A program made the translations under genes and the position numbers. Below are positions 1,539 to 26,932 of a DNA stretch of 26,932 nucleotides, one piece after another. Below the pieces are notes generated by a model that saw only the letters and a list, made by a program, of their open reading frames with translations, did not search any database and had not been told where the DNA came from. Every line of letters begins with the position of its first letter. The stretch's first letter is position 1. This stretch comes from Bacillota bacterium (GTDB lineage: Bacteria > Bacillota > Clostridia > Peptostreptococcales > Anaerovoracaceae): contig JAFZRK010000053.1 in NCBI GenBank assembly GCA_017619905.1, positions 1 to 26,932 on the forward strand, read 5' to 3'.

Positions 1539-1544
1539 AATAGC

Positions 1545-5211: not shown

Positions 5212-5234
5212 AAAACGGGCCCTTGCGGGTCCGC
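5212..5234 (-). terminator. Putative terminator of the ddl operon
   Basis: Minus strand CGGACCC-GCAA-GGGCCCG (one mismatch) followed by TTTT. Confidence 0.5.
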
Positions 5235-5259
5235 ATCGGCAAAGAATAACGGCGATCCG

Positions 5260-11367: not shown

Positions 11368-12147
11368 TTAAGGGTTGCAGCGTTTACATGGTTCATATCC
11401 AGCATTGATTGGTTCTGATCTGTCACCATAAAAGAGTACCATGTTGCTCTCTTTCATATCTGTTACGCTGGAGCACCAAGGATAATGGAATTTCTTAGAA
11501 TTTCTATTTCCAACAAACGATGCATTCTTAGTATCTTTCTTTTCTCGTTCAGCTTTTTCTTTAGCTTCCTGCTCGGCTTTGGCTTTCGCTTCAGCCTCAG
11601 CTTTTTCTTTAGCTTCCTGCTCGGCTTTGGCTTTCGCTTCAGCCTCCGCCTTAGCTTTGGCTTCCTGTTCTGCTTTAGCCTTTGCTTCAGCCTCAGCTTT
11701 AGCCTTCGCTTCCTGCTCAGCCTTAGCTTTAGCCTCTTGCTCAGCTTTGGCTTTAGCCTCAGCATCTGCTTTAGCCTTTGCCTCCTTGTCCGCTTTAGCT
11801 TTTGCTTCGGCGTCTGCTTTTGCCTGTGCTTCCTGTTCAGCCTTTAGTTGTGCTTCCGCGTCAGCCTCAGCTTTAGCCTTGGCTTCTTGTTCTGCTATTT
11901 TCTCTGCCTCTGCTTTGGCTTGTGCTTCCGCTTCAGCATCGTTCTTTTCTTCTTGTGTAACGACTTCTTCAGTGTTCTGGGTAGATTCAACAGAATTGAC
12001 GATAGCGGAACTAGCTTTTTTCGAAGAACCGCATGATTCAAGCGTAAGCATCGCGCCAACTAAAAACAATGCGGCAATTCCGATTACAAGCTTTTTTCTT
12101 TTACATTCAGTCTTTTTTACAGATTCTTGTTTGCCGATAAAACGCAT
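11368..12147 (-). CDS. Low-GC lipoprotein with Ala/Lys/Glu helical repeats and a C-terminal Ada-like metal-binding domain
   Basis: Signal peptide ending LESC; (KAKAEQEA/KAKAEAEA)n; C-terminus GNRNSKKFHYPWC...GYEPCKRCNP. Markedly AT-richer than neighbours. Confidence 0.8.
   Translation of the reverse strand: MRFIGKQESVKKTECKRKKLVIGIAALFLVGAMLTLESCGSSKKASSAIVNSVESTQNTEEVVTQEEKNDAEAEAQAKAEAEKIAEQEAKAKAEADAEAQLKAEQEAQAKADAEAKAKADKEAKAKADAEAKAKAEQEAKAKAEQEAKAKAEAEAKAKAEQEAKAKAEAEAKAKAEQEAKEKAEAEAKAKAEQEAKEKAEREKKDTKNASFVGNRNSKKFHYPWCSSVTDMKESNMVLFYGDRSEPINAGYEPCKRCNP
11549..11646. repeat. Exact 48-bp tandem duplication within the 24-bp-period coding repeat
   Basis: 11549-11596 is identical to 11597-11644. 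Confidence 0.9.
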
Positions 12148-12171
12148 AACTTTGCCTCACATTATAAACTG

Positions 12172-12729
12172 TTATTTCTTTTTACCCAGAATGTATCCGA
12201 ACACGGCGCCGACGATGCCGCCGACTATGTGCGCCATGTTGGAGATGTTGTCCTTAACGAACAGGCCGTCGTAGACCTGCTGCCCAAGGTAGACGATCGC
12301 CACCAGGATGAAGGTGACGGGGATCTCGCCCTTCTTGAAGCTGGTGAAGGACGTCATCAGGATGAACGCGAACACTATTCCGCTGGCTCCGCAGAGCGCG
12401 ATGTTCGGGAAGAAGATGTAGTTCACCACGCCGGTGATCAGCGCGGTAAGGGCCATAACGCCCAGCAGGCGTTTTGCGCCGTATTTCTCCTCCAGCATCG
12501 GCCCCAGCAGCAGGATGTAGGACATGTTGCCTATGAAGTGCTGCCAGCCGCTGTGCCCCAGCGCGTGCCCGAAGAAGCGCACGTAGGTGAGCGGGTCCGC
12601 CAGCGAGCTGTGATAGGTCATGAACAGCAGACGGTTGCTTGCGCCCGCGGTGACGATATTAAGGATCATTGCCGCCAGGCTCAGGAACACGAATCCCAGG
12701 ATCAGCGGCGAATTGAATTTGATCTTCAT
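12172..12729 (-). CDS. Rhomboid family intramembrane serine protease
   Basis: H..W.HF..NM, GASG catalytic Ser, AH..G catalytic His. Confidence 0.92.
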   Translation of the reverse strand: MKIKFNSPLILGFVFLSLAAMILNIVTAGASNRLLFMTYHSSLADPLTYVRFFGHALGHSGWQHFIGNMSYILLLGPMLEEKYGAKRLLGVMALTALITGVVNYIFFPNIALCGASGIVFAFILMTSFTSFKKGEIPVTFILVAIVYLGQQVYDGLFVKDNISNMAHIVGGIVGAVFGYILGKKK

Positions 12730-12762
12730 TATTGCTTGGAGCTCCGGAACGTTCTCAGAAGC

Positions 12763-14097
12763 TTAGTCGTCCATGTCCTCGTAGGCGGCCAGGCCCTTCT
12801 TGGCTTCGACCTTGGCGTCGCCGTGCCTTACGAAGGTCATGGTAACGAAGGCCAGCGCGATGAATACGGCCGAGTACGGGAAGAGCACCTTGTAGTCGAT
12901 CTGGCGCATCAGCGTTCCGGCCAGGATCGGGGTCACCACCTGAGCCGCCATGGAAGCGGTGTAGTAGTAGCCGGTGAACTTACCGATATCGGAGCCCTTG
13001 CACATTTCAACGACCATCGGCAGGGAGTTTACGTTGATGGCTGCCCAAGCAAAGCCTATTAAAACGAACACAACGTACATTATAATGGTTATCTTTGTCA
13101 TCGAGGTCGTCAGGACGTAGCACAGCGCGAAGCACACTGCAAGCAGTATGCAGCCCATGCGTATCGTCTTTCTGCGGCCCAGCTTGGAAGCGATGATGCC
13201 TATCGGAATGTAGGAGACGATGGCGCCGCCGGTGGCTACCATAAGGATGCGGGACGATTCGCCCAGGCCCATGCCCATGACCTGGCTGGCGTAGGTGGTG
13301 AACCAGGTTGTGACTCCGTTGTAGCCGATGAACCACAGCGCTATGGACGCAAGCAGGAACCCCAAGCTCTTCTTTACCGCGGGCGGCAGGGTCTCGTGGC
13401 CGGAGCCGTCGTCCTCCGCAAGGTTCCACTCGGGGTGCTGGGCCTCCAGGGCCTTGTTCTCCTCGACCAGCTTGGGCTCTTTGACGGTAAGGAACAGGAT
13501 GCCCACGCCTACGAACATTATCGCGGATACTATCATGAACAGCGGCTGGTAGTTTACGTGATCCAGGCCGGCTGTCTTGGATTTCGGGTACATTACCGCG
13601 GCTATGCCCAGGTAGATTATTCCGCCCACCGCGCCCATCAGGTTGATTATGGCGTTGGCCTTGGAACGCAGCGGCTTGGGGGTTACGTCCGGCATCAGCG
13701 CTACGGCCGGCGAACGGTAGACGCCCATGGCTATCAGCAGCAGGGCCAGCGTTACGACGAAGGAGATGATCTTGGCGTTGGACGGGGCGGCGAAGTAGCC
13801 GTTGTCGAAGAGCGGCAGGATGTTCATCAAGATGACTGCGCAGCCCGTGCCGAAGAGTATGAACGGCATGCGCTTGCCGATCTTAGTGCCCGCCTTGTCG
13901 GACAAGCTTCCGAAGAACGGCAGCAGGAACAGCGCCAGAACGTTGTCCGCGCCCATTATGACGCCCGAGACGGTCTCGTTCATGTGGAAGGTATTGGTGA
14001 GGATCATGGGCACGACGTTGTCGTACATCTGCCAGAACGCGCAGATGGTGAGGAACGCCAGACCCACGAGTATGGTCCGCTTGTTGTTGAGCTTCAT
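12763..14097 (-). CDS. MFS transporter (SLC45/maltose-permease-like)
   Basis: About 12 TMs, GSLSDK..TKIGKRMPF motif A, KLGRRK in the second half, ALMPD.TP. Confidence 0.9.
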   Translation of the reverse strand: MKLNNKRTILVGLAFLTICAFWQMYDNVVPMILTNTFHMNETVSGVIMGADNVLALFLLPFFGSLSDKAGTKIGKRMPFILFGTGCAVILMNILPLFDNGYFAAPSNAKIISFVVTLALLLIAMGVYRSPAVALMPDVTPKPLRSKANAIINLMGAVGGIIYLGIAAVMYPKSKTAGLDHVNYQPLFMIVSAIMFVGVGILFLTVKEPKLVEENKALEAQHPEWNLAEDDGSGHETLPPAVKKSLGFLLASIALWFIGYNGVTTWFTTYASQVMGMGLGESSRILMVATGGAIVSYIPIGIIASKLGRRKTIRMGCILLAVCFALCYVLTTSMTKITIIMYVVFVLIGFAWAAINVNSLPMVVEMCKGSDIGKFTGYYYTASMAAQVVTPILAGTLMRQIDYKVLFPYSAVFIALAFVTMTFVRHGDAKVEAKKGLAAYEDMDD

Positions 14098-14136
14098 TTT
14101 GGACTCCTTTCGCGTAAAGAGTTATTCAACTATATT

Positions 14137-14145
14137 ATTATATCA
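14137..14145 (-). promoter_or_regulatory. Extended -10 promoter of the MFS-rhomboid genes
   Basis: TGATATAAT on the minus strand, AAAGGAG SD downstream. Confidence 0.65.
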
Positions 14146-14167
14146 TAGGGGACGGGCGCTTACAGTC

Positions 14168-14237
14168 TACAGCAGGCCCTCTTTGAGCGCCGCCAGGACA
14201 TTGTTTACAGCAGGCCCTCTTTGAGCGCCGCCAGGAC
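14168..14237. repeat. 32-bp direct duplication of the HAD gene 3' end
   Basis: TACAGCAGGCCCTCTTTGAGCGCCGCCAGGAC at 14168-14199 and 14206-14237. Confidence 0.9.
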
Positions 14238-15137
14238 GTCGGCGATGTCGCGGAATACGTAGGTGGGGTGCACGCCGTACTTTTCGCAGTCCTCCACCGT
14301 GCCCTCGCCGGACAGCACCAGGATGGTGTCGATGCCGGCGTTGTTTCCGCAGGCGATGTCCGTGTAGAGGCGGTCGCCGATCAGGACGGTCTCCTCCGGC
14401 GCGGCGCCGTATTTTTTGAGCGCGGAATATACCATCTGCGGCTGGGGCTTGCCGATGATGACGGGCTCGCGGCCGGTGCAGACTTTCAGCGAATGGATGA
14501 TCAGACCGATATCCGGCTCGTTGCCGTTTTCGGTGGGGCAGACGAGATCCGGGTGGGTGGCCACGTAGTCTGCGCCCATGTCCAGCAGGCGCACGCAGTT
14601 GACAAGTTTTTCGTATGTGAGCTCCGTGTCGTAGCCAAGCAGAACGACGGGAAATGTTGATTTTTCAAGGGATCTGGGGTCAGCGCTCCGGACGGGTGCA
14701 GGGGCGTGTCCCGTGGACTCGGAACCCGGCGCGCCAGCGCAACTATACTTCAGTTGCTCAAATATGGCGGCCAGCTCCGCCTCCGTGAGCACTTTAAGCC
14801 CCACGGTTCTCAGCTGGCTCTTCAGGTTCTCCGTGCCGCATACATAGTAGGCGGCCGGCGGGTCATTCTCTTTGCCCGGCGCGAACGGCGCGTAGGTCTT
14901 CTTCAGATAGTCTATGGTGGCGTCCGTGGACGTCAGGAAGCTGAACGGCTTCTGCGGAATGCCCAGGCGCTCCATCTTAGCCAGGTAGCCCTCGATCCCG
15001 CGCGAGCTGTTGTTGGTCAGGAACGCGTACTGTCCGCCGCTTGCTTTTACCCACGACAAAAACTCCGCGGTGCCTTCGAAAAGGCGCTCGCCCAGATAGA
15101 TGGTCCCGTCCATGTCGAGTAAGAACAGTTTTTTCAT
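14205..15137 (-). CDS. HAD-IIA (NagD-like) phosphatase with a ~35-aa insertion
   Basis: LLDMDGTIY, LTNNS, IGKP, IGDRLYTD motifs. ATG at 15137 overlaps the GNAT stop (ATGA). Confidence 0.92.
   Translation of the reverse strand: MKKLFLLDMDGTIYLGERLFEGTAEFLSWVKASGGQYAFLTNNSSRGIEGYLAKMERLGIPQKPFSFLTSTDATIDYLKKTYAPFAPGKENDPPAAYYVCGTENLKSQLRTVGLKVLTEAELAAIFEQLKYSCAGAPGSESTGHAPAPVRSADPRSLEKSTFPVVLLGYDTELTYEKLVNCVRLLDMGADYVATHPDLVCPTENGNEPDIGLIIHSLKVCTGREPVIIGKPQPQMVYSALKKYGAAPEETVLIGDRLYTDIACGNNAGIDTILVLSGEGTVEDCEKYGVHPTYVFRDIADVLAALKEGLL
14739..14757. repeat. GCAACT-N7-AGTTGC palindrome, copy E (inside HAD insertion)
   Basis: GCAACT atacttc AGTTGC (perfect arms). Confidence 0.8.
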
Positions 15138-15694
15138 CCCATCGCCTCGTATTCGCTGCGGAGGATGCTCCAGACGCACAGATCCACAATGCCGGTGTTG
15201 TCCGACGCCGCCTGGCGCAGAGTGCCCTCGTACTGAAGCCCGCACTTGTGCATCACCTTGCCGGAGTTGGGGTTTTCCACGTTGTGTCGCGCCTCCAGGC
15301 GGTTGACTCCAACCTCGTCGAACATGAAGCGTATCACCGCCTCGAATGCCTCGCTGGTTATGCCCTGATGCCACCACTTTTTGCCTATGCAGTATCCAAT
15401 GGATACTATATTATGTTTTTCGTTCATTGAAACGACCGAAATCGACCCGATCGGCTCGTTTATCTCCTTCAGGACTATCGCCCACTGGTAGCAGGACGGG
15501 TCCGCGTAGTTTGCCGCCCAGAGCTTCAGCAGCTCGCGCGTGATCTGCGGGTCCTTGTGCGGCTGCCAGGTCAGGTGCTTGGTAACGTCCGGGTCGCTGG
15601 CCCAGTTGTCGAACATGGCCTGCGCGTCGTCCTCGGTGAAGCGCCGCAGGATCAGCCGCCCGGTCTCAAGTTGTACAGTTCCTTTGTGTTCCAT
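15134..15694 (-). CDS. GNAT family N-acetyltransferase (RimJ/RimL-like)
   Basis: LETGRLILRRF, IGYCIGKKWWHQGITSEA, N..S.KVM.KCG. Start may be TTG 15700. Confidence 0.92.
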   Translation of the reverse strand: MEHKGTVQLETGRLILRRFTEDDAQAMFDNWASDPDVTKHLTWQPHKDPQITRELLKLWAANYADPSCYQWAIVLKEINEPIGSISVVSMNEKHNIVSIGYCIGKKWWHQGITSEAFEAVIRFMFDEVGVNRLEARHNVENPNSGKVMHKCGLQYEGTLRQAASDNTGIVDLCVWSILRSEYEAMG

Positions 15695-15771
15695 GATCAA
15701 GTGCCGGCAGTCCGCCGACTTTCAGTTATTTCGCTCAGATTCCGGGGCTTTTACTATCGGCCCCCAAACGT

Positions 15772-16836
15772 TCAGAAATTTGGCGCAGTCTCCGCGAATG
15801 CCGCCATAAGCTTGCCGGCCGCCTCAATGTCCGCGATGCTGCAGACTTCCTGGGGCGAATGCACGTAGCGTGTGCCTATCGAAACGCCGCAGGTCCATAC
15901 GCCGCCTGCGTTCTTGCGCATCTCGCTTCCGTCCGTGCCGCCCGCCTGGATGACGTCCACCTGCCAGGGAATGCGTTTTTTATCCGCGATGGCCTTGAGC
16001 GCGGCCACCATCTCCGGATGGCAGATGACGGACTTGTCCATCACTTTTATCGCAGCGCCCTTGCCCGGGATTGAGGTCCCCATGTGTTTGGACTTGGGTG
16101 CGTCGTCCGTAAGCGTGGTGTCGCAGACTATGGCGTACTGCGGGTCTACGTGGAAGGACGCGGGCTTTCCGCCGCGCAGACCTACTTCCTCCTGCACCGT
16201 GAACACGAAATAGCAGTCGAAAACGGGCTTTCTGAGCGACTCCAGCGCCAGCAGCTGCGCAATGACGCCTGCGCGGTTGTCCACGTAGGGGGAAACGACA
16301 AAGCCGTTGCCCAGCGCTCTGGTAGGCGTATCGAACACGGCCATGTCGCCCTTCTGCACCAGTTTTTCCGCTTCCTTGCGGCTCGATGCGCCAATGTCTA
16401 TGAACATGCTGTCGATCGCGGGCTTGTCCGCGTCCGCGTCGCAGCCGATGGTGCCGACCGTGCCGTTGGCGAAACGCACCGGGATGGCCTTGAGGTCCTC
16501 CGGATGCAGCACGCCCACCATGCCGAAGCGCAGCAGCCCGTTCTCTTCTATATAAGTTACTATCATGCCTATGGAGTCCATGTGGGCTGCGAACATCAGC
16601 TTCGGAACAGTCGGATGGTCTTCGGGCGGCAGGGCTATCGGCAGCTCGCTCTGAGTGTTGGTACGTCTGCCGGTCCTGGCCGCGCGTTTAACGACGATAA
16701 GGTTGCCCATCACGTCCGGGTACATGTCGTCCGCGAAGGGTCTGGCCAGCTCCGCGATCTTTTCTCTTATCTGATCCTCGCAGCCGGACGGCCCGAAGCA
16801 GGCGTTGAGTTCTTTAAGTGTTTTCAGAATATCCAT
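15772..16836 (-). CDS. M42 family aminopeptidase (paralog 3)
   Basis: AAHMD, DNRAG, QEEVG, CD, YVHSP metal ligands. Confidence 0.9.
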   Translation of the reverse strand: MDILKTLKELNACFGPSGCEDQIREKIAELARPFADDMYPDVMGNLIVVKRAARTGRRTNTQSELPIALPPEDHPTVPKLMFAAHMDSIGMIVTYIEENGLLRFGMVGVLHPEDLKAIPVRFANGTVGTIGCDADADKPAIDSMFIDIGASSRKEAEKLVQKGDMAVFDTPTRALGNGFVVSPYVDNRAGVIAQLLALESLRKPVFDCYFVFTVQEEVGLRGGKPASFHVDPQYAIVCDTTLTDDAPKSKHMGTSIPGKGAAIKVMDKSVICHPEMVAALKAIADKKRIPWQVDVIQAGGTDGSEMRKNAGGVWTCGVSIGTRYVHSPQEVCSIADIEAAGKLMAAFAETAPNF

Positions 16837-17931
16837 TTATCTGATCCTTCCCGACGCCACGGCGTCCACGAACAGCTTTGTAAGGGTATAGCACTGTTTC
16901 AGATCCGAGGTCTTGGCCACGCTGTTGGGGCAGTGTATGCTGCGCACAGGGGCCGCAAGGCATGCGACCCTAACGCCCGAGCGGCTTCTCTGCACTGCTG
17001 CAGCGTCCGTGCCTCCGGCTATCCTGCCCTTGATCTGCCACGGCAACTTATTTTCAGTTGCAAGGTCCCGCAGGGCTTCAAACAGCTTTCTGTCGTATAT
17101 CGTGCCGGCGTCCATGAAGCCGATCACCGGTCCGCCGCCAATGGTGGTGACCTTCTTGTGGCCGTCCACGCCTGCCAGGTCCGCGGAGGTGGTGCCTTCC
17201 AGGATCAGCGCTATGTCCGGCTTTACGGACCACGCCGCCGCGGTCGCTCCGCGCACGCCCACCTCTTCCTGGACCGTAAACACGAAGGTAACGTCCATGG
17301 GCAGGTCTTTTTCAAGCAGTTTCAGCATAATGGCGCAGCCGCAGCGGTCGTCTATGGCCTTGGCCTTAACGAAACCGTCGCCTTTGCCGAAGCGCACGAA
17401 ATCGCTGTAAAACGCCGCGCAGTCGCCGATGTTCACCAGCTTTTCGGCCTCTTCCTTGTCTTTGGCGCCGATGTCTATGTACATGGAGGTCCACTTCGGG
17501 ATCTCCTCGCGCTCCTCGGGGGTGCTCATGTGGACCGCCTTCAGCCCGGTGACACCGGGGATGCGTTTTTCGCCCACCCATACGCGGCGGTTGAACACGA
17601 CGCGCGGGTCTATGCCGCCCACGGGCGCGAACTTAAGGAAGCCCTTATCCGTGATTCCGTTGATTATGAATCCGACCTCGTCCATGTGGGCCGCGATCAT
17701 GAGTTTTGGCAGCGGGGCGTCGTTTTCCGCGTTGCAGCTGCAGTTCGTGTTGTTGTCCGCGCAGTTTTCCGCGTTATTCGACGCGTGTTTTACCACTATA
17801 AGGTTGCCCATGCGGTCCGTACGCACGTCGTCCGTGCAGCGGAGCGCCTGCGCCTTTATGTATTCGCGCACTTCCTCCTCGGAACCGGAGATGCCGTTCA
17901 GAAGGCAGAGCTTTTTAAGAGTTCTCAGCAT
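16837..17931 (-). CDS. M42 family aminopeptidase (paralog 2)
   Basis: AAHMDE, DDRCG, QEEVG, LEGT, SIHCP. Start ATG at 17931. Confidence 0.9.
   Translation of the reverse strand: MLRTLKKLCLLNGISGSEEEVREYIKAQALRCTDDVRTDRMGNLIVVKHASNNAENCADNNTNCSCNAENDAPLPKLMIAAHMDEVGFIINGITDKGFLKFAPVGGIDPRVVFNRRVWVGEKRIPGVTGLKAVHMSTPEEREEIPKWTSMYIDIGAKDKEEAEKLVNIGDCAAFYSDFVRFGKGDGFVKAKAIDDRCGCAIMLKLLEKDLPMDVTFVFTVQEEVGVRGATAAAWSVKPDIALILEGTTSADLAGVDGHKKVTTIGGGPVIGFMDAGTIYDRKLFEALRDLATENKLPWQIKGRIAGGTDAAAVQRSRSGVRVACLAAPVRSIHCPNSVAKTSDLKQCYTLTKLFVDAVASGRIR
17043..17061. repeat. GCAACT-N7-AGTTGC palindrome, copy F (inside M42 paralog 2)
   Basis: GCAACT tattttc AGTTGC (perfect arms), encodes ATENKL. Confidence 0.75.
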
Positions 17932-19906: not shown

Positions 19907-19941
19907 GATGCTCCTCCATCGGTTTATATTTCCAACACTTT

Positions 19942-19970
19942 ATGATATACTAAACGCAATCTTTTTACAA
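19942..19970 (-). promoter_or_regulatory. Putative SigA promoter of the nucleotidyltransferase-M42 operon
   Basis: Minus strand TTGTAA-17 nt-TATCAT. Confidence 0.55.
19943..19951 (+). promoter_or_regulatory. Extended -10 promoter of the PAP2 gene
   Basis: TGATATACT, with GAAAGG SD upstream of ATG 19985. Confidence 0.55.
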
Positions 19971-19984
19971 GAAAGGCGGCCCCA

Positions 19985-20680
19985 ATGGACGAAAATCTGC
20001 AGACTGCTCCGGCTAAACGCTTCGGCAGCGTAAGGATAATAAAGATAGCGCTTTCGATCGCGGTCTTCGCGCTCATAACCTGGCTCATGATGACCGGCAA
20101 ACTGGACGGCTTCGACGCCGCGGTCCAGAAGTTCTTCTTCGGCCTGCGCCGCGACTGGCTCACCAAGATACTGGTGCCGTTCTCCTACAGCGGCAACTGG
20201 CCTCTGCCGGCGCTCATCTGCCTTATACTGGTGCTCGTGAAAAAGACGCGCTTCAGTTTCGGCATCCCCATGTCCTGCACCTGCCTGTTCTGCGTGGGCA
20301 TCTATCAGGCGCTTAAATACACGTTCTGCCGCCCCAGGCCGGACGTTTCCGTGCACCTGCTGGTCCAGGACGGCTGGAGCTTTCCCAGCGGCCATTCGCT
20401 TACAAGCTTGGTGGCGTGGACCTTCCTGATCCTGCTGTTCAGGTATTATTACAAGACCAACGGCGCGTCGCTTCCTCTGTACAAGAAGCACCCGCAGCCC
20501 GCCGAGGCGTACATCCGCGACAACGGCAAGCGCAAGCTGGTCAGCACCCTGCTGATAATCTACATTGTTCTAATGGGTCTGTCCCGCATCTACGTGGGCG
20601 TCCACTGGCCCAGCGACGTTCTCAGTTCCTGGGTCCTGGGCATCGCCGTGATCGAGATAGTGCAGGCGGTGTTCCTGTAA
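19985..20680 (+). CDS. PAP2-family membrane phosphatase
   Basis: K...CRPRP, SFPSGHS, SRIYVGVHWPSDV. Confidence 0.93.
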   Translation: MDENLQTAPAKRFGSVRIIKIALSIAVFALITWLMMTGKLDGFDAAVQKFFFGLRRDWLTKILVPFSYSGNWPLPALICLILVLVKKTRFSFGIPMSCTCLFCVGIYQALKYTFCRPRPDVSVHLLVQDGWSFPSGHSLTSLVAWTFLILLFRYYYKTNGASLPLYKKHPQPAEAYIRDNGKRKLVSTLLIIYIVLMGLSRIYVGVHWPSDVLSSWVLGIAVIEIVQAVFL

Positions 20681-20767
20681 GCAGCGTTCCGCGCGCCGTG
20701 GATCGACGATTGAGTGTTTTACGGACAGCGCGTTCCACAGACGACGATTCGCAGAAAGGCATAAACG

Positions 20768-21031
20768 ATGGATCTCAAGGAAAGCAGAGACCGCATAGAC
20801 AAGATAGACGATCAGCTCGAGGCGCTGTTCAAGGAGCGCATGGAGATCGCTGCCCGGATCGGCGAATATAAAAAGGCGAACGGTCTGCCCGTGCAGGACT
20901 CTGCCCGTGAAAAGCAGATCCTTGCCGCCCGCACGAAAGACGCCGGCAATCTTGAGCCCTACATGCGCCGCTTCTTCAAAGAGATATTGAAGCTTTCGAA
21001 GGAGTACCAGAGAGAGCTGAATGATAAATAA
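20768..21031 (+). CDS. Chorismate mutase (AroQ/type II, stand-alone)
   Basis: R..ID.ID..L..LF.ERM.....IG.YK....LPV.D..RE pattern, 87 aa. Confidence 0.88.
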   Translation: MDLKESRDRIDKIDDQLEALFKERMEIAARIGEYKKANGLPVQDSAREKQILAARTKDAGNLEPYMRRFFKEILKLSKEYQRELNDK

Positions 21032-21060
21032 TACAGGTATAGAATAGTACGGATCACAGA

Positions 21061-21100
21061 AAACAAACAACCCCTTGCGGCAGCGCAGGGGTTTTCGTTT
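21061..21100 (+). terminator. Intrinsic terminator after chorismate mutase
   Basis: AACCCC(T)TGCG-gcag-CGCAGGGGTT followed by TTCGTTT; A-rich left side. Confidence 0.75.
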
Positions 21101-21137
21101 GGTAAAAACGGTACACACTTTAGGTAAAAACGGTACA
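21101..21137. repeat. 15-bp direct repeat, 22-bp period
   Basis: GGTAAAAACGGTACA at 21101-21115 and 21123-21137. Confidence 0.85.
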
Positions 21138-21267
21138 GTGATGCGCCGGATCGATTGACTCGGTATGCGGCCTGTGGCATTATCTGCGTACAGATCGGCT
21201 CGTTCAGTATTATTGCAGCAGGCATCCCCCAGATCAGTATCGAAAGCGTTTTCTGAGCCGAAACTGA

Positions 21268-21316
21268 AAGACCGCGTTCCCCGGGTCAAAGGCACCGTCA
21301 GAGGATACGCGGTCTT
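21268..21316 (-). terminator. Long hairpin downstream of the lipoprotein gene, likely terminator of the MBOAT operon
   Basis: AAGACCGCGT ... ACGCGGTCTT perfect 10-bp inverted repeat with 29-nt interior. Minus strand continues TCAGTTT. Confidence 0.5.
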
Positions 21317-21344: not shown

Positions 21345-21860
21345 TTATTTCTCCACCAGCGCTATGTACTGGATGGACGTTACCACGCCGCCGTCGAAGA
21401 TGATAAGCAGCTTGCAGTTGTCGGTCTTAAAGGTGGCGCTCGTTGCGTCCTTCTCGAAGTCGCCGTAGGCCTTCTTTACGTCCTCGGCCTTGGAACCGAT
21501 CGCGATGCCCTCCGGGGTCTCCACGGTGTCGTCGCGCAGGACCACGCCGCTGATCAGGTCCTTGCCGTTCTGGCTGTAGGTCATAAGATCAAATCCGTTG
21601 TAGGAGTAGATCTTGTCCATGCCGTCGAACGCGCAGCTGGGGGCCTCGTAACTGCTCTTGTAAGCACCCAGGGCCTTAAGCACTGCCTCGGCGTCGGCCT
21701 TCATCTCGATGACGGTGCTGCCGCTTTTGAACACGTAGTCCTTGCTGTTGGCGCCGCTGTTGGGGTTGATGCTGGTATCGTTGCTTCCTTTTTCGCAGGC
21801 GCAGAGCGCGATCGCGAGCACCAGTATAAGGGCAACTGCCGCTAAAACTCTTTTTCTCAT
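21345..21860 (-). CDS. Hypothetical lipoprotein
   Basis: Signal peptide ending ALCAC, AGGAGG SD; motifs SCAFDGMDK.Y.Y and TPEGIAIGS. Confidence 0.8.
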   Translation of the reverse strand: MRKRVLAAVALILVLAIALCACEKGSNDTSINPNSGANSKDYVFKSGSTVIEMKADAEAVLKALGAYKSSYEAPSCAFDGMDKIYSYNGFDLMTYSQNGKDLISGVVLRDDTVETPEGIAIGSKAEDVKKAYGDFEKDATSATFKTDNCKLLIIFDGGVVTSIQYIALVEK

Positions 21861-21956
21861 CCTTATTCCTCCTTTGACCGGCCGTCCGTCGGCCGTATGT
21901 TTTTATCGGTCCGCGCGCCGGTCTATCGGCTGCCGCAGGACTTCGCATTAACATAA

Positions 21957-23012
21957 TTACTTGTAGCGCGTGACTGCGCCTTCTTCGCGAAGCTGCTTGT
22001 ATTGAGCTTCCTTCATGTATTCGTAGAAGGCCTCTCGCTCGGCCCACTCGGCGGCCAGCGCCGCGTCGGACCGTCTGTCCTCCACGCCGCACTTCTCCGA
22101 CAGGTACTTGCCGAACCACGCGGACATCTTCTCCGCGCCGGAAAGGTTAAGGTGCAGGCCTGCGTCGTAGGTATCCGTATTGTAATCCATTTCGAGCTCG
22201 TCCGCAAGTTCTAAGAAGTTAATATATTCCAAGCCGTATTTTCCGGCGTAGTCCTCGATCTGCTTTTCCCACTGGTCGTACCAGGCGGGGTAGAGCGACG
22301 GCGCCTTTATAAGTATCAGCCGGATGCCGTTCTTATCGCAGGTCTCACGTATCTTGTCCAGGTACTCCCAGCACTTGGGGCCTATCGTATAATCCGGAAG
22401 CGGCACGGGATCCGGCACCTGACCGGCGGGCTTGGCGTCCACGCGCATCAGGTAGCCGTTGTGCGACAGCTTCTCGGTCTTGAACAGGTAATTGAAATCC
22501 TCGGAAGTAAGCTCGCTCCAGCGGGAGTGGAAGCGCAGCAGCGGCAGGATGTAGCTCGCCACGGTCTCCTCGTCCGTCATGGAGGCCTTTACGGCGTCCA
22601 GCTTGGTCGTAGACCACTTCATGCCGTCCAGGGTAAGGCGGTTGTAGGCCTCGTTCTGCGGCTCGGCGTATTTCATTGCCAGCACGTTGAAGACCACCAC
22701 CTTGGGCGTCTCGTAGCGCAGCGTGTCCTCCAGCATGTAGTAGGACTGCCAGGTGAGCTGCTGCGGAGTTCCGCGGATGTAGCTGGTTATTCCGTAGTCG
22801 CGCCACAGCTTTACCGGCGAGAAGTTGGTGTAGACCTCGCAGTCTCCGATGAACAGCACGTCGTTGTTGCCGGCGTTGGCGTAGTACTCGGAGGAGAGTA
22901 TGCCTTCCTCGTTGGTGGTGGCGTACTTGGGCACCAGCAGTTTCTGCAGCAGGAACAGCGTGGCGGCAAGGAGGACGACGCATATTACGATCTTTACGAT
23001 TCTTTTCTTCAT
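21957..23012 (-). CDS. SGNH/GDSL-like (DltD/AlgJ-like) membrane-anchored protein
   Basis: N-terminal TM, DVLFIGDC block-I-like motif, C-terminal DAGLHLN..GA; directly follows the MBOAT gene. Confidence 0.75.
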   Translation of the reverse strand: MKKRIVKIVICVVLLAATLFLLQKLLVPKYATTNEEGILSSEYYANAGNNDVLFIGDCEVYTNFSPVKLWRDYGITSYIRGTPQQLTWQSYYMLEDTLRYETPKVVVFNVLAMKYAEPQNEAYNRLTLDGMKWSTTKLDAVKASMTDEETVASYILPLLRFHSRWSELTSEDFNYLFKTEKLSHNGYLMRVDAKPAGQVPDPVPLPDYTIGPKCWEYLDKIRETCDKNGIRLILIKAPSLYPAWYDQWEKQIEDYAGKYGLEYINFLELADELEMDYNTDTYDAGLHLNLSGAEKMSAWFGKYLSEKCGVEDRRSDAALAAEWAEREAFYEYMKEAQYKQLREEGAVTRYK

Positions 23013-23025
23013 GTCTCCTCCTTTC

Positions 23026-24600
23026 CTAGAACTGGTTGTATATGAACTGCGTGGCGTCGTAGCCGATTCCGTAGGCCCCGAACACCAGAATTACGATTAT
23101 AAGGATCCAGACTATCAGATACCTCGGAACCAGCGGCTTTTCGGCCAGCTGCTCTGCCACAGGCTTCTTGCCCTGCAGTATTCCGACGATCAGGAAAATG
23201 ACCAGCGCTATTGCAACTATAATATAGTCGCGCACTTCCAGCCCGAATTTAAGCATGCCGCCGGAGAACATCTCGCTCCAGCCCTTGCTGCTGAAAATGG
23301 TGGGCACCATGCGGAAGGTAAGCGGCACGTTGCGGTATACGTCAAGCACTCTCAGGAACGCCATCAGCCAGAAGGTGCGGAACATCTGGAAGATATCCCA
23401 GCCCCTGGTATTGGAGAACGCGCACTTTTCGTGGAACTTTGCGTAGAGCGGCTCCAGCTCCTGCGAGATGATTATTACAAGGCAGTTGAGCAGTCCCCAG
23501 ACCACGAAGTTCCAGGACGCGCCGTGCCATATGCCCGTGGCCAGCCACACAAGTATCGTGGACAGGTAGACCGGCACGCGTTTGCCCAGCTGAGTACCCA
23601 GCTTGGCCCTGGACCACTTGGACACCTTAAGCATCCACTTGCTTACGGACACCGGGTAGAATATGTAGTCCTTGAACCACGTTCCCATGGTTATGTGCCA
23701 GCGTCTCCAGAATTCGGTTATGTTCTTCGAGAAGAACGGCCTTTCGAAGTTCTCCGCAAGATCCACGCCGAACATCTTCGCGACGCCAATGGTTATGTCT
23801 ATGCCTCCGGTAAAGTCCGCGTAGAGCTGTATGGTATAGAAGAATACCAGCGCCAGAACGTAGCCGCCGGCGTATTTGTCCGGGTTCTGGGCTATGCCCG
23901 TCACCACCGGGACCAGTCTGTCGGCCACTACCATCTTCTTGAAGAAGCCCCAGACGGCCCTCCAGGCGCCCTGGGTTATCTTCTGCGCGTCGAACGCGTG
24001 CTCCGAATAGAGCGTCTGCGAAAGCTGGTCGAAGCGGCTTATGGGGCCCTGAACCAGCTGCGGGAAGAACGTAACGAACAGCGCGAACCTGGCGGGGTTG
24101 AGCTCCGCCTGATACTTGCCTCTGCTGACGTCGATTATGTAGCCCATGCTCTGGAAGGTGTAGAACGAGATTCCCATGGGCAGGGCGAAGCGCAGGAACG
24201 CAATGTCGGTCCCGAACAGGGAATTGATGGTCCCTATGGCGAAATCCGTGTATTTGCAGACCGCGAGGATGCCCAGGTTAAGGATGAGGCAGCACACCAT
24301 TATGCTGCGGCCCTTCTTCTTGGCGGCTTCCTTGCAGCTCTTCTTTTCTTCTTTGGTAATGTCCGGGGTGTCCTTAAGGAACGCGTCGCGCGCGGCGTAG
24401 GCATCGTGGATCAGCTTGCCCGCAAACCACGTGGACAGCGCCGTCACCGCTATGTAGATAAGGTATTTGGGGCTGGCGAAGGCATAGAAAACTAAGCTCC
24501 CCGCCAGAAGCAGCGCCCACTGGAAGCGGCGCGGCAGCGCGTAGTAAAGGATGAACAGTATAAGCAGGAATAATAAGAATCCGAGCGATACGAAAGACAT
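23026..24600 (-). CDS. MBOAT family O-acyltransferase (AlgI/DltB-like)
   Basis: LPMGISFYTFQ, FFPQLVQGPI, ENFERPFFS....FWRRWHIT, GIWHG catalytic His. Confidence 0.95.
   Translation of the reverse strand: MSFVSLGFLLFLLILFILYYALPRRFQWALLLAGSLVFYAFASPKYLIYIAVTALSTWFAGKLIHDAYAARDAFLKDTPDITKEEKKSCKEAAKKKGRSIMVCCLILNLGILAVCKYTDFAIGTINSLFGTDIAFLRFALPMGISFYTFQSMGYIIDVSRGKYQAELNPARFALFVTFFPQLVQGPISRFDQLSQTLYSEHAFDAQKITQGAWRAVWGFFKKMVVADRLVPVVTGIAQNPDKYAGGYVLALVFFYTIQLYADFTGGIDITIGVAKMFGVDLAENFERPFFSKNITEFWRRWHITMGTWFKDYIFYPVSVSKWMLKVSKWSRAKLGTQLGKRVPVYLSTILVWLATGIWHGASWNFVVWGLLNCLVIIISQELEPLYAKFHEKCAFSNTRGWDIFQMFRTFWLMAFLRVLDVYRNVPLTFRMVPTIFSSKGWSEMFSGGMLKFGLEVRDYIIVAIALVIFLIVGILQGKKPVAEQLAEKPLVPRYLIVWILIIVILVFGAYGIGYDATQFIYNQF
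23213..23231. repeat. GCAACT-N7-AGTTGC palindrome, copy G (inside MBOAT)
   Basis: GCAACT ataatat AGTCGC (same mismatch and same GC right flank as copy A). Confidence 0.65.
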
Positions 24601-24662
24601 TATATCGTTATCCGTTCAGCGTTCCGGCAGCTTGGCGCCGGGCGCCGTCGGGCGTCCTTTCC

Positions 24663-24890
24663 TTATTCGTCCAGAAGCTTTTCGACCATTGCCCACAGGG
24701 CCTGGGCGGAGTTGAAGTTCTCCGGGATTATCTGATCCGCGGGCACCGCAACGTCCATCTGGCTGTTGAGCTCGGTGATTATGGATATTATATCGAACGA
24801 ATCGAGTATTTTATCGTCTATCAGCGTGGTGCAGTTCTCGAAATCCACGTCCGGCCTTATGTCTCTAAGGATATTCATGAATTCTTCCAT
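24663..24890 (-). CDS. Acyl/aminoacyl carrier protein (DltC-like)
   Basis: 75 aa, acidic; LDSF phosphopantetheine site; PENFNS; AGGAGG SD. Confidence 0.9.
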   Translation of the reverse strand: MEEFMNILRDIRPDVDFENCTTLIDDKILDSFDIISIITELNSQMDVAVPADQIIPENFNSAQALWAMVEKLLDE

Positions 24891-24944
24891 CGTGTTTCCT
24901 CCTTTGATCTTCCGGGCTGATGTCTCTGCCCAGAGCAATACCCC

Positions 24945-26264
24945 TTAGTTATATGTTAATACGTACTTTCCGTTCTTGTACTCCACATGCACCGGCGTGG
25001 TGTCCGGCGTCTTGGGATAGTCTTCCTTTACGCGGTTGTAGTAGCCGGGACGCACCTCCGTGCTGAACCAGTCCAGTTCGGAGTCTATGCCCAGGAAGCC
25101 CACGTAGTTGCGGATGTACAGCGGCACCGCGTCCACGTGGTACCAGTTGCCGTCCAGTTTCACCATTACCCAGTAGTGGTGGTTGACGTAGGTCCCTATT
25201 ACTTCCTTTATCTCAAAGCCCATGGCCTCAGCCATCGCGCGGAACCCGCATGCGCAGGTGTAGCAGTCGCCCGGCTTGCCGTCCAGACACTTTATGGCTT
25301 CGTTTACGTAGTCGAACTGCGCGTGGCCGTTCTGGTACTCTATGTGCTCACGTATCCACAGGAACGCCGCGTAGAGCTTTTCGATGTCCGTCATCTCCGG
25401 CGTTATGATCTTGGCCAGCAGCGCGTCCACCTTCTGGTTCATCTTCTCGATGTTCTTGTAGCCGATGGGCTGCTCTTCCACCTTAAGGTTTATGGAGACC
25501 TGCGTGCTGTTGCCGCAGAAGTCCGTGGCGGTGTAGGTGACCGGGTAGATGCCCACCTTGTCCAGGTCCACCTGAGTGTTGTCGATGGTCAGCTTCGGCG
25601 ACGGGTCCATGTTGTCCGTTACGGTGACCCCCGCCTTGTACGCTATGGTCTCGCCTATGTAGACGGTGCGGTTCTTGACGCCCTCGATCACCGGGGGCTC
25701 CTTGTCGTCCACCAGCTCCAGCGTCGCCTTGACGGTGGTGCTGTTCTTGCCGGCGTCCGTGGCTGTGATCTCAACGTTCTGGACCGCGGTGGACTTGAAG
25801 TCCGGCTTCTTGCCGAAGCTGAAGGTGACCGCGGTCTTGTCCTCGCAGGAGGTAATGAAGTCCTCCGGCTTCAGCTCCTGGCCCAGTGCGCCCTTAAGAT
25901 CCTGCGCTTCCACGACCGGCGCCACGGTGTCCTTGATTATGAGCCGCGAGGACAGGGTGAACAGGCCGCCCTTTATCTTAACGATCTTGGTGGCGGGGAC
26001 GCTGGTGTCCAGGCCCGACAGATCCGTTGCAAGCGTGTATTTGTCCGGGTTGCGGCGCACGAACGCCTCGATGCCGGGCACGGGGCTTCCGGCTTCTATC
26101 TCGACCCTCTTCCTGACGTTTATGTGCAGTATGGCCGACACAAGCAGTATCAGCAGGACCAGCAGCAGCGCAAACACCACGTAGGCCCGCTTCTTGAGCC
26201 GTACCTTGCGCTTTTTGCGTGAACTGCGCGTTGGCTGTGTGCTGTAACGTTCTCTTTCTGCCAT
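24945..26264 (-). CDS. Membrane-anchored protein with Ig-like stalk repeats and a C-terminal transglutaminase-like (Cys-His-Asp) domain
   Basis: Basic N-terminus plus TM; repeated D..PPV/PV..TATD..GN units; GDCYT, HYW, HVDA. Confidence 0.8.
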   Translation of the reverse strand: MAERERYSTQPTRSSRKKRKVRLKKRAYVVFALLLVLLILLVSAILHINVRKRVEIEAGSPVPGIEAFVRRNPDKYTLATDLSGLDTSVPATKIVKIKGGLFTLSSRLIIKDTVAPVVEAQDLKGALGQELKPEDFITSCEDKTAVTFSFGKKPDFKSTAVQNVEITATDAGKNSTTVKATLELVDDKEPPVIEGVKNRTVYIGETIAYKAGVTVTDNMDPSPKLTIDNTQVDLDKVGIYPVTYTATDFCGNSTQVSINLKVEEQPIGYKNIEKMNQKVDALLAKIITPEMTDIEKLYAAFLWIREHIEYQNGHAQFDYVNEAIKCLDGKPGDCYTCACGFRAMAEAMGFEIKEVIGTYVNHHYWVMVKLDGNWYHVDAVPLYIRNYVGFLGIDSELDWFSTEVRPGYYNRVKEDYPKTPDTTPVHVEYKNGKYVLTYN

Positions 26265-26316
26265 TTATATATATCTTCCCAATAAGAAATCTACTATATC
26301 TATAATATAGCAGTTT

Positions 26317-26345
26317 ATTATATCACAATGTGTAGTTTATAGCAA
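26317..26345 (-). promoter_or_regulatory. SigA promoter for the transglutaminase-ACP-MBOAT operon
   Basis: Minus strand TTGCTA-17 nt (ending TGA)-TATAAT. Confidence 0.7.
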
Positions 26346-26381
26346 CGCGGCAAGGGTGACGTTTCTGTGATGTTATCGGCC

Positions 26382-26441
26382 CGGAACCGGCATCGCGGAC
26401 TTGAGAAACAGACACGGAACCGGCATCGCGGACTTGAGAAA
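26382..26441. repeat. 27-bp direct repeat, 33-bp period, containing the -35 hexamer
   Basis: CGGAACCGGCATCGCGGACTTGAGAAA at 26382-26408 and 26415-26441. Confidence 0.9.
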
Positions 26442-26462
26442 ACGCCGCGCCGGCTATATAAT
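26434..26462 (+). promoter_or_regulatory. SigA promoter for the adenylation-domain gene
   Basis: TTGAGA (26434-26439)-17 nt-TATAAT (26457-26462); second TATAAT at 26463-26468. Confidence 0.7.
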
Positions 26463-26589
26463 TATAATGTTATGCAGCAAACTTCACGGTGTACCGTGAA
26501 TGTCGATAAAAGTGCCCCGGTAAACGGGGACCGCAGGAAAACGGAGGACCCCGGAACGCGGGGGCCCTCAGCAGACAGGGAGTCAAAAC

Positions 26590-26932
26590 ATGGAAAGATC
26601 GGTGCTGGGACGCCTGGACAGGGCCGCGGAACTCTGGCCGGACAGGACGATGCTCAAGGACAGCGAAAGGTCGCTCACTTTTTCGGAGTTCAGCGGACTT
26701 AGCAAGCGCATAGGGACCGCTCTGGCGGCCCGCATAGAAGCCGGAAAGCCGGTGGCGGTGCTGTCCGGAAGGCACGTGTTCACGCCGGCCGCCTACCTTG
26801 GAATAGTGCGGGCGGGCTGCTTCTACGCGCCCATGGACGGCGACGTCCCCAAGGCGCGCCTCAACCAGGTGCTGTCGGTGATAAACGCGGACCTGATGGT
26901 GGTGGACAGGGACCATCTGGAAGTGGCAAAAG
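26590..26932 (+). CDS. Amino-acid adenylation domain / AMP-binding enzyme (DltA-like), N-terminal part, truncated by window end
   Basis: My translation from ATG 26590: MERSVLGRLDRAAELWPDRTMLKDSERSLTFSEF...GIVRAGCFYAPMD...PKARL, matching A1/A2-region patterns (LTYxEL, AGxxYxPxD, PxxRL). Absent from the ORF track because it has no stop. GGGAG SD. Confidence 0.85.
   Translation, partial: MERSVLGRLDRAAELWPDRTMLKDSERSLTFSEFSGLSKRIGTALAARIEAGKPVAVLSGRHVFTPAAYLGIVRAGCFYAPMDGDVPKARLNQVLSVINADLMVVDRDHLEVAK

Follow-up and report, generated by a model that had tools for sequence, protein, structure and literature searches.

A locus at one end of a contig from an uncultured member of the Clostridia, of rumen or gut origin (JAFZRK010000053.1 of assembly GCA_017619905.1; 26,932 nucleotides, hereafter the window) raises the question of whether genes that resemble parts of the Dlt pathway still carry out D-alanylation, or instead serve another form of envelope acylation. 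A preliminary description had placed a minus-strand unit of five genes (21345-26264) opposite a divergent adenylation gene that begins at 26590, and we verified all six genes at these positions (Table 1). Their order differs from that of dltXABCD, as had been noted. The 325-bp gap between the transglutaminase-like (TGase-like) gene and the adenylation gene had also been called promoter-rich. Two back-to-back promoter-like sites are indeed present and are kept in three related strains, as are the -10 element and ribosome-binding site of the adenylation gene, and the block carrying the minus-strand site is kept in L103, L104 and L155. Such sites number 3 across the region, no excess over the 2.8 obtained after shuffling. 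The gap also holds a 27-nt direct repeat (copies at 26382-26408 and 26415-26441), and the -35 element of the adenylation-gene site falls in the second copy.

Table 1. Positions of genes, motif and promoter-like sites at the locus (window coordinates).
Feature	Position	Strand	Details
Lipoprotein, 171 aa, final gene of cassette	21345..21860	-	signal peptide and lipobox Cys
Membrane-anchored SGNH-fold protein, 351 aa, remotely DltD-like, predicted acyltransferase	21957..23012	-	Cys nucleophile
MBOAT, 524 aa, DltB-like core with two-helix C-terminal extension	23026..24600	-	PF03062, 67.9 bits
Acyl-shuttle motif F519-I-Y521-N-Q-F524, extreme C-terminus of MBOAT, fused DltX equivalent	23029..23046	-	
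Carrier protein, DltC-like, LDSFD	24663-24938 (ORF), 24663..24890 from likely start	-	75 aa
Membrane-anchored extracytoplasmic TGase-like protein, 439 aa	24945..26264	-	N-terminal TM helix, Ig-like domain, Transglut_core
Promoter-like site, TGase-ACP-MBOAT-SGNH-lipoprotein operon	26317..26345	-	TTGCTA-17-TATAAT, TG extension, 10/12 matches
Promoter-like site, adenylation gene	26434..26462	+	TTGAGA-17-TATAAT, 11/12 matches
5′ third of stand-alone NRPS-type adenylation enzyme, type A2	26590..26932	+	AMP-binding; leaves contig end

One explanation would be ordinary D-alanylation, in which a rearranged Dlt pathway places D-Ala on teichoic acids. The two systems share their logic. Both have an adenylation enzyme that stands alone, a small carrier and an MBOAT whose catalytic His block is the same, and in both a FxYxxF shuttle with its Tyr is joined by an SGNH-fold transferase that is anchored. 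Moreover, the nearest NCBIfam matches are DltA, DltB and DltC, and some sources name the MBOAT DltB. The evidence against this reading begins with scores that all lie far under the equivalog cut-offs.

The MBOAT is a clear member of its superfamily (PF03062 cut-off, 27 bits), and its residues 142-379 align to solved DltB, including the WRRWH302 catalytic block; H302 and H359, both of which align with that structure, are invariant in our MBOAT alignment. To count as DltB, a protein would have to exceed the TIGR04091 cut-off of 375 bits, be about 385-425 aa long and lack a C-terminal shuttle. The protein at this locus scores 158.5 bits and falls outside the DltB clade (support 100), in a separate clade (support 99) that we call type 1. 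Two earlier remarks, that the MBOAT is AlgI-sized rather than DltB-sized and that no dltX is visible, both hold and have a single cause, namely that the MBOAT carries the shuttle as a fused C-terminal part, in place of a separate DltX microprotein. Residues ~455-524 comprise two hydrophobic helices followed by FIYNQF, all borne on a roughly 110-aa extension. F519, I520, Y521, Q523 and F524 are invariant, and FxYxxF forms the C-terminal end of every type-1 MBOAT and of every MBOAT in a sister cassette, type 2, described below. True DltB proteins (384-393 aa, with one of 467) do not end in this motif. In both DltX and PatA, the Tyr of this motif has been shown to bear the acyl group (PMC12148441).

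The SGNH protein departs from Dlt at its predicted nucleophile. Its AF2 model (pLDDT 90) adopts the three-layer alpha/beta SGNH fold, with Z 12-13 in comparisons with GDSL proteins such as TesA and CgnD. Superposed on DltD, 240 residues match at Z 11.4, and the residues of block III (N124, within N124-R125) and block V (D283 and H287, within D283-x-G-x-H287) are invariant among the 75 homologues aligned. The G56-D57-C58-E59 motif is likewise invariant (75/75), placing Cys58 (codon 22839-22841) where the nucleophilic Ser of DltD resides; true DltD carries GSSE. A direct hhalign comparison with true DltD yields a probability of only 71%, over the 55 columns of a PxxxWYD segment. The carrier most likely starts at the ATG at 24890, which is preceded by GGAGG, and its predicted phosphopantetheine site is Ser31 of LDSFD; all 71 homologues (71/71) have both D30 and S31. 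It has no PF00550 match in Pfam and reaches 26.9 bits against DltC models (cut-off 68); a match to AsbD is also weak and below cut-off. It shares 65-71% identity with the carriers found in type-1 cassettes, and 47% with one from type 2.

The fused shuttle recalls the O-acetylation systems PatA/PatB and AlgI/AlgJ, whose MBOATs (~480-530 aa) also work with a separate SGNH partner and have extra C-terminal helices, two in number, that end in FxYxxF (PMC12148441). The MBOAT at this locus has the same C-terminal feature. However, such systems draw on an acyl-CoA donor and have no carrier protein (PMC12148441), whereas the operon at hand belongs to a family with a conserved carrier (76/80 type-1 loci) and adenylation enzyme (69/72 loci with sufficient flank), and its SGNH protein uses Cys. 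On gene content it is not a PatA/AlgI-type system, which would have neither a dedicated carrier nor an adenylation enzyme, although the chemistry of the donor is inferred.

Type-1 cassettes occur in 80 Clostridia genomes or loci, usually as a single co-directional operon of the order TGase-(Asp-type racemase)-A-ACP-MBOAT-SGNH-lipoprotein. Among 63 loci, 48 have more than 600 bp between the TGase and adenylation genes, and in 47 of these an ORF of 183-250 aa lies in that gap. An Asp-type racemase was confirmed at all four loci sampled (TIGR00035, 205-224 bits), which is another point against D-alanylation, since this is not an Ala racemase. The SGNH gene is present at 71/72 loci with sufficient flank. 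Distribution is patchy, with only 6 of the 19 species of the genus carrying the cassette.

The two additional genes travel with this core. TGase is present in all 59 loci that have at least 5.2 kb upstream, and the lipoprotein in 64 of the 72 with sufficient downstream sequence; in the other eight, including Pseudobutyrivibrio, no lipoprotein gene was found. The TGase-like protein matches Transglut_core (PF01841, 51.7 bits; cut-off, 23 bits) and Bact_surface_Ig-like (28 bits), and its triad of C334 (codon 25263-25265), H363 and D378 is invariant in 61/61 homologues, as required of the transglutaminase-like superfamily. The lipobox Cys of the lipoprotein, C20, is kept in 60/62 homologues, and the window's copy also has L-C-A-C22. 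Neither Pfam nor NCBIfam contains a match to this protein. Its AF2 model (pLDDT 87) gives 4ifa, YfeY (2qzb) and DUF4309 (4ygt) as top Foldseek matches. The predicted fold is BLIP/DUF4309/YfeY-like, and the protein probably has a binding or regulatory role in the system.

The adenylation gene, which is interrupted by the contig end, continues in frame on contig C142 of genome G000 (3958 down to 2771, minus strand) through a 29-nt in-frame overlap. The join, which completes a protein of 500 aa, is confirmed by contiguous orthologues, 90-91% identical, in genomes G011 and G002 and on one metagenome contig. The two parts score 189.9 bits (C142) and 42.8 bits (window) against the DltA equivalog TIGR01734, far from the cut-off of 559.85. 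Cassette adenylation enzymes are of two kinds, A1 and A2, which together form their own clade (support 99) apart from DltA references that cohere only weakly (SH-aLRT 82), and the enzyme encoded here falls in the A2 clade (support 96-98). The preliminary description had inferred an uncharacterised pathway that activates an acid, exports it and attaches it to the cell surface, a reading that would fail if the components fell inside Dlt clades or if the flanking genes were not conserved with the core. Neither of these outcomes was observed, and the reading is supported. Canonical dlt operons, for their part, occur in two Clostridia of our phylum sample. Overall, we regard D-alanylation by a rearranged Dlt pathway as extremely improbable. 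Type 1 appears instead to be a separate, widespread Clostridia family; our literature search found no paper that describes the cassette and no biochemical data for any member.

Placement in A2 also reveals that the divergent gene is not the cassette's own adenylation enzyme. A1, the usual one, has a median identity of 62% among its members, and the A2 protein is only 33-40% identical to them. A2 enzymes belong to the type-2 cassette, whose layout of A2-ACP-PLP decarboxylase-MBOAT-SGNH is found in about 75 of 80 metagenome A2 loci, and whose decarboxylase is an Orn/DAP/Arg-type PLP enzyme. In two genomes of the same genus (G013 and G019), a complete TGase-A1-ACP-MBOAT-SGNH-lipoprotein cassette lies upstream of the same ntp gene as in the window species, and in G013 a DUF1846 gene on the opposite side of the cassette matches as well, marking the same chromosomal site. 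At this site the window species has lost A1 cleanly, leaving the TGase stop ~55 nt from the ACP start. The divergent gene is thus a replacement drawn from the sister cassette, and because the loader has been exchanged, the cargo of the cassette may have changed with it in this species.

It remains possible that A2 is merely a neighbor with an unrelated job, and that the cassette is idle or is served by an enzyme encoded elsewhere. A2 is read from the other strand, behind a promoter-like site of its own, and the proteins it naturally works with (ACP2 and the decarboxylase) are missing. Three type-1 loci (L051, L070 and L083) show no adenylation gene in the available contig piece, although each piece extends 2 kb or more beyond the MBOAT gene on its upstream side. 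Genome G011 moreover encodes a second PP-binding protein, close to an additional AMP-binding gene. However, the divergent pair has been retained with both promoters in G000, G011, G002 and one metagenome contig, A2 and the MBOAT are under equal purifying selection (dN/dS ~0.1 for each), and A2 is the only match above the cut-off of TIGR01733, the amino-acid adenylation domain model, in the 98%-complete G011 genome. These observations, and the clean removal of A1, make an incidental association unlikely, though not negligible. With moderate confidence, we favor a carrier-dependent MBOAT-SGNH envelope acylation system of Dlt-like logic, separate in descent as type 1, for which A2 is now the loader.

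The predicted pocket bears on what A2 loads. The triplet is D-L-(M/T/L) in DltA, D-A-K in A1 (Asp235 and Lys239 in most relatives) and I-A-R in A2, and the code read from the completed enzyme is not of the D-Ala type. Every A2 sequence has Ile at the Asp235 position and an invariant Arg239, and three alignments, on which this reading of the pocket depends, also place an invariant Asp two residues upstream; the substrate could therefore be one without an alpha-amino group. Where Asp235 is lost, an adenylation domain typically acts on keto, hydroxy or aryl acids. A2 could thus activate a dicarboxylic, hydroxy or keto acid and produce a purely anionic surface acyl group. We consider such a non-amino acid quite improbable, because the upstream Asp could contact an amino group that lies farther away, and because in the A2 family a carrier gene and one for a PLP decarboxylase consistently follow. 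The same combination of adenylation enzyme, stand-alone carrier and Orn/DAP-type PLP decarboxylase is used by VinN/VinL/VinO and FlvN in loading beta-amino acids for macrolactams. In the VinN/VinL/VinO triad, Asp or 3-methyl-Asp is loaded by its side-chain carboxyl and decarboxylated on the carrier, and such a decarboxylase needs the amino group of the substrate (PMC11284099). Whereas that triad serves a polyketide synthase, the one in Clostridia supplies an MBOAT-SGNH exporter. The window species, in turn, has only A2, without the decarboxylase or A2's own carrier, and does not possess the module. No type-2 decarboxylase was found in G011, whose sole racemase is MurI-sized, and the best decarboxylase matches in G000, G011 and G002 are LysA-like and only 28-29% identical.

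From the observed gene content, conservation, motifs, folds, phylogeny and gene exchange we propose the following route, every chemical step of which is inferred. A cytoplasmic adenylation enzyme would activate a small acid and join it in thioester linkage to the 75-aa carrier. Once the carrier has docked, the MBOAT would use its conserved His to move the acyl group across the membrane to Tyr521 of its own FIYNQF tail, such that no separate DltX would be needed. The anchored SGNH protein would take the group on Cys58 as a thioester and hand it to a wall or membrane polymer, and the anchored Cys-His-Asp enzyme and the lipoprotein would act at or after this final transfer. In the window species, where A1 (usually found beside an aspartate-type racemase) is gone and a lone A2 is placed divergently upstream, A2 would charge the carrier of the type-1 cassette with an acidic amino acid, perhaps by its side-chain carboxyl, without racemization or decarboxylation. 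A2 and this carrier are not native partners, and loading is assumed from adjacency alone. The likely function is to export an acidic amino acid by way of the carrier and deliver it to a wall polymer, with both substrate and acceptor inferred. A parallel exists in AlmE/AlmF/AlmG, which modifies lipid A with glycine in Vibrio cholerae: that pathway uses a DltA-like enzyme together with a DltC-like carrier, both recruited for placing another amino acid on an envelope molecule. AlmG, however, is a lipid A acyltransferase of the cytoplasmic face and not an MBOAT-SGNH relay.

A broader proposal, which we offer tentatively and as a possibility rather than an expectation, is that a family of carrier-dependent MBOAT relays in gut and rumen Clostridia decorates the wall with acidic amino acids instead of D-Ala by using two thiol enzymes, the Cys-SGNH and the TGase-like protein, perhaps ending in an amide to a wall amine and not an ester, and that the exchange of loader in this species changed cargo or linkage, for example from D-alpha-aspartyl to L-beta-aspartyl. 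If this is true, the relay is modular, and the surface chemistry of these bacteria would be re-programmable by the exchange of a single gene.

The window, which is the entire contig C100 of a 70%-complete metagenome-assembled genome (G000, 1.46 Mb), ends within the adenylation (A) gene that accompanies its cassette of TGase-like, carrier, MBOAT, SGNH and lipoprotein genes (see table). The final 29 bases overlap in frame with the end of a second contig, C142, which supplies 395 residues comprising the remainder of the AMP-binding domain plus AMP-binding_C, and the joined A enzyme is 500 residues long. We consider this join to be real because the gene is contiguous in two genomes of the same genus, G011 (98% complete) and G002, and in one metagenome contig, each of which carries a 500-aa orthologue that is 90-91% identical. 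Downstream of these orthologues lies a convergent DUF1846 gene, and the five-gene unit lies upstream in divergent orientation. No operon partner lies downstream of the window-type A gene, and its product, comparable in size to DltA, stands alone.

Features of the window and of related loci (G, genome; C, contig; L, locus)
Feature	Location	Strand	Description
Two ORFs	window, 19940-21295	minus	183 and 241 aa, between cassette and nucleotidyltransferase gene
Five closely packed genes	window, 21345-26264	minus	TGase-like, carrier, MBOAT, SGNH-like, lipoprotein
TGase-like protein	window	minus	439 aa; basic N-terminus, one TM helix, Ig-like domain, Transglut_core domain
Carrier protein	window, likeliest start ATG at 24890	minus	75 aa; GGAGG before start; motif LDSFD
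MBOAT	window	minus	524 aa
SGNH-like protein	window	minus	351 aa, N-terminally anchored
Lipoprotein	window	minus	171 aa
27-nt direct repeat	window, 26382-26441		perfect, two copies 33 nt apart; duplicates -35 region of plus-strand promoter
AMP-binding (A) gene	window, starts 26590	plus	325-bp gap from minus-strand unit; leaves contig at its end
Second MBOAT of same genome	L253, G000:C157:14913-15812		478-aa frame, ends FMYFRF
Type-1 variant	L010, 2102-9308		carrier gene on opposite strand, after lipoprotein gene
TGase-like paralogues	L106 (G019:C71), 11815-15679		3-4 in tandem upstream of type-1 cassette, same-genus genome
Cassette racemase	L035:6487-7203		above CuyB cut-off; aspartate racemase subfamily also matched
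Cassette racemase	L040:6333-7070		above CuyB cut-off; aspartate racemase subfamily also matched
SGNH paralogues	L190, L191, L198, L202 and other human-gut metagenome loci, about 14600-17900		two or three in tandem after type-2 A2-ACP-decarboxylase-MBOAT
Separate A2-type enzyme	L252 (G019:C42), 1483-6333		with carrier, PLP decarboxylase, then 605-aa COesterase-family protein, not an MBOAT-SGNH pair

Two promoter-like sites (matches of 11/12 and 10/12) stand back to back in the divergent gap, and both are kept, together with the ribosome-binding site, in three related strains in which the intervening spacer differs by hundreds of bases. The A-gene promoter takes its -35 element from the second copy of the 27-nt repeat; in related strains the repeat is single-copy and the spacer lengths are very different, with up to ~600 nt extra in G011. 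Rfam gave zero matches in the window, and thus no known leader RNA precedes the A gene. On the other side of the cassette, the two minus-strand ORFs were negative in Pfam and NCBIfam searches. The shorter occupies the same position in relatives (49-73% identical), and the longer is conserved only patchily and may not be a gene.

The architecture of the MBOAT protein distinguishes this cassette from published systems. A solved DltB structure aligns to residues 142-379, a span that contains the catalytic His block WRRWH. The preliminary description had remarked that no dltX is visible and that the MBOAT is AlgI-sized, and both observations hold: past the DltB-like core, a C-terminal extension of ~110 residues contains a pair of hydrophobic helices and terminates in FIYNQF, a hexapeptide without variation across the MBOAT family. 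This is the FxYxxF acyl-shuttle motif, fused to the enzyme, whose Tyr is the site of D-Ala attachment in DltX and of acetate attachment in PatA (PMC12148441). The true DltB proteins encoded in canonical dlt operons, which measure 384-393 aa apart from one of 467, lack this tail. In the published view, bacterial MBOAT-SGNH systems follow two designs, in which Dlt uses a carrier with a separate DltX, whereas fused-motif MBOATs use acyl-CoA without any carrier protein (PMC12148441). Because carrier protein and fused shuttle occur together here, the cassette represents a third design that bridges both. The second MBOAT of the same genome, with no carrier or A gene alongside in the piece examined, is probably an acyl-CoA-type AlgI/PatA-like enzyme.

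The possibility that the cassette is an ordinary Dlt system was weighed. NCBIfam equivalog scores of the cassette proteins fall far under the Dlt cut-offs, and no gene of the incomplete G000 genome exceeds those for DltA or DltB. In an A-enzyme tree rooted with acyl-CoA ligases, six DltA proteins from canonical operons group weakly (SH-aLRT 82), and the two cassette enzyme types, A1 (the usual in-operon A enzyme) and A2 (a second family that includes the window's own), form a sister clade to them with a support of 99. The MBOAT tree resolves a DltB clade (support 100) and places the window's protein outside it, within the type-1 clade (99), which is the Clostridia cassette family with TGase-like and lipoprotein genes. 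True DltD carries GSSE, whereas the type-1 SGNH protein carries GDCE. Judged by these sequence comparisons, the cassette is not Dlt. Of the conditions that the preliminary description set for its own refutation, clustering inside bona fide Dlt clades is not seen, and a lack of conservation of the flanking genes with the core is contradicted by their distribution.

More than 7,900 MBOAT homologues were recovered at E below 1e-20, and the same cassette genes flank the MBOAT gene on one strand in 80 species genomes, which include Lachnospiraceae, Oscillospiraceae, Acutalibacteraceae, Pseudobutyrivibrio, Roseburia, Agathobacter and Anaerocolumna. Among loci with sufficient flanking DNA, the TGase-like gene is present in 59/59, the A enzyme gene in 69/72, the SGNH gene in 71/72 and the lipoprotein gene in 64/72, most commonly in the order TGase-A-ACP-MBOAT-SGNH-lipoprotein. 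In 48 of 63 loci more than 600 bp separate the TGase and A genes, and 47 of these 48 have an ORF of 183-250 aa in that space; at all four loci sampled the ORF encodes a racemase of the aspartate type (TIGR00035, 205-224 bits). Residues D30-S31 of the carrier (71/71), C334, H363 and D378 of the TGase-like protein (61/61) and the G-D-C-E of the SGNH protein (75/75) are invariant, as are N124-R125 and D283-x-G-x-H287 of the last. Such invariance argues that the cassette parts, as predicted from sequence, are all active. A second TGase/Ig-domain gene is also found at loci L009 and L030.

The Cys at the nucleophile position is peculiar to type 1; the two SGNH proteins of L134, the one locus read of the sister (type-2) cassette, carry GDSE and GASE. 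The SGNH protein model (pLDDT 90) adopts an SGNH fold, with Z scores of 12-13 to TesA-like and GDSL proteins; DltD scores Z 11.4 but, at 240 residues, aligns over the greatest length. Compared profile to profile, the family and true DltD match at a probability of only 71%, over a common PxxxWYD segment. A search of the family profile by sequence against solved structures matched none, and the sole match for the TGase protein was an Ig-like fragment. The lipoprotein model (pLDDT 87) resembles two-repeat domains of the BLIP, DUF4309 and YfeY type, which commonly serve as binding modules. Pfam and NCBIfam searches with the lipoprotein and a Pfam search with the carrier were empty.

We infer from analogy with Dlt and PatAB, and from the invariant residues, a relay that has not been shown, in which the acyl group would pass from the carrier to the MBOAT His, then to Tyr521 of the fused shuttle and on to the SGNH protein. 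The Cys nucleophile and the presence of a second Cys-His-Asp enzyme suggest extracellular thioester chemistry, which could favor transfer to an amine. The TGase-like protein could catalyse the last transfer, or its role could be one of relocation or editing; for comparison, recent work links the esterases DltE and FmtA to D-alanylation.

The A enzyme of the window is only 33-40% identical to in-operon A1 enzymes, compared with a median of 62% among A1 enzymes themselves, and it groups in the A2 family with a support of 96-98. Hundreds of A2 relatives exist at 55-71% identity. In ~75 of 80 metagenome loci, A2 heads the type-2 cassette, which is composed of A2, a carrier, a PLP decarboxylase of the Orn/DAP/Arg type, an MBOAT with FVYMQF at its end and between one and three SGNH genes, without TGase-like or lipoprotein genes; its MBOAT clade is sister to that of type 1 (support 96). 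A further MBOAT-SGNH pair, ending PIYANF, precedes A2 at L134, L182 and L185; at L134 this pair in turn has a two-component system upstream.

The window's other four cassette proteins are of type 1, and its carrier is 65-71% identical to those of the closest type-1 loci (L004 and L007). The same-genus genomes G013 and G019 retain TGase-A1-ACP-MBOAT-SGNH-lipoprotein upstream of the same ntp gene, with the DUF1846 gene also on the cassette's other side in G013, and therefore A1 was cleanly lost and A2 gained at one site. Only ~55 nt separate the TGase stop from the carrier start in the window, and tblastn found no A1 remnant in this interval in the closest relatives, L103 and L104. A search for the source of A2 in 150 genomes of another order returned two distant copies only.

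A lone A2 gene divergent from an A1-less type-1 cassette is confined to the window's own species group, and its adjacency might be incidental. The dN/dS of A2 is ~0.1, equal to that of the MBOAT; core motifs A5, A7, A8 and A10 match their patterns, and the A3 stretch FTSGSTGRPKG was seen in a structure-search alignment; and A2 is the sole amino-acid adenylation domain above cut-off in near-complete G011. These features suggest that A2 is in use; its role as loader of the cassette carrier is inferred from adjacency. G011 has no type-2 decarboxylase, and its only racemase is MurI-sized; A1-bearing G019 has an aspartate-type racemase elsewhere in its genome.

Substrate pockets were read at positions anchored on motifs A4 and A5 and on the DltA Cys aligned to position 301, with the Stachelhaus positions and the known Asp and Glu codes as background. 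Over the nine variable positions (517 left out), DltA reads D-L-(M/T/L)..., A1 reads a nearly invariant D-A-K-C-A-G-L-G-M, and A2, including the window's enzyme, reads I-A-R-C-C-S-Q-A-S. The predicted A1 cargo, judged by Asp235, Lys239 and the adjoining Asp-type racemase, is an acidic D-amino acid, most simply D-Asp. Two of three NCBIfam-scanned cassette racemases slightly exceed the curated cut-off for cysteate racemase CuyB (200-202 versus 190 bits), and D-cysteate is therefore an alternative acidic cargo. The outlying A enzyme of L010, 44% identical to A1 enzymes, has Asp at both positions 233 and 235 (PFDFDLSVKDIY).

For A2, three independent alignments place Ile at the Asp235 position; Arg239 is invariant, as is an Asp two residues upstream of that position, in PLDYIAA(I/V)RDIY. 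A carrier and a PLP decarboxylase always accompany this family, a logic common to VinN/VinL/VinO and FlvN, in which Asp or 3-methyl-Asp is loaded via the carboxyl of its side chain and undergoes decarboxylation while carrier-bound (PMC11284099). Because of this coupling we think, by inference, that A2 binds an acidic amino acid in reverse orientation. With Ile in place of Asp235, a non-amino dicarboxylic acid is not excluded; the acidic amino acid reading rests on the coupling. If an acidic amino acid is indeed the cargo, the carrier in the window's species, which lacks the decarboxylase, would by inference retain its beta-aspartyl or gamma-glutamyl group.

Our literature search found no published papers on the type-1 or type-2 cassette. 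What is new here is the direct testing of the refuting conditions, the identification of the fused shuttle as part of a hybrid of both published designs, and the natural loader swap. To MBOAT-SGNH designs the cassette adds an SGNH enzyme built on Cys, as well as two more surface proteins. The exchange of the window's loader for that of a sister cassette constitutes a natural experiment on the coupling of substrate choice and export. Type-1 cassettes are common among abundant commensals of the gut and rumen, such as Roseburia, Agathobacter, Pseudobutyrivibrio and numerous further Lachnospiraceae and Oscillospiraceae, in which a surface modification could affect charge, antimicrobial-peptide resistance, phage adsorption and immune recognition.
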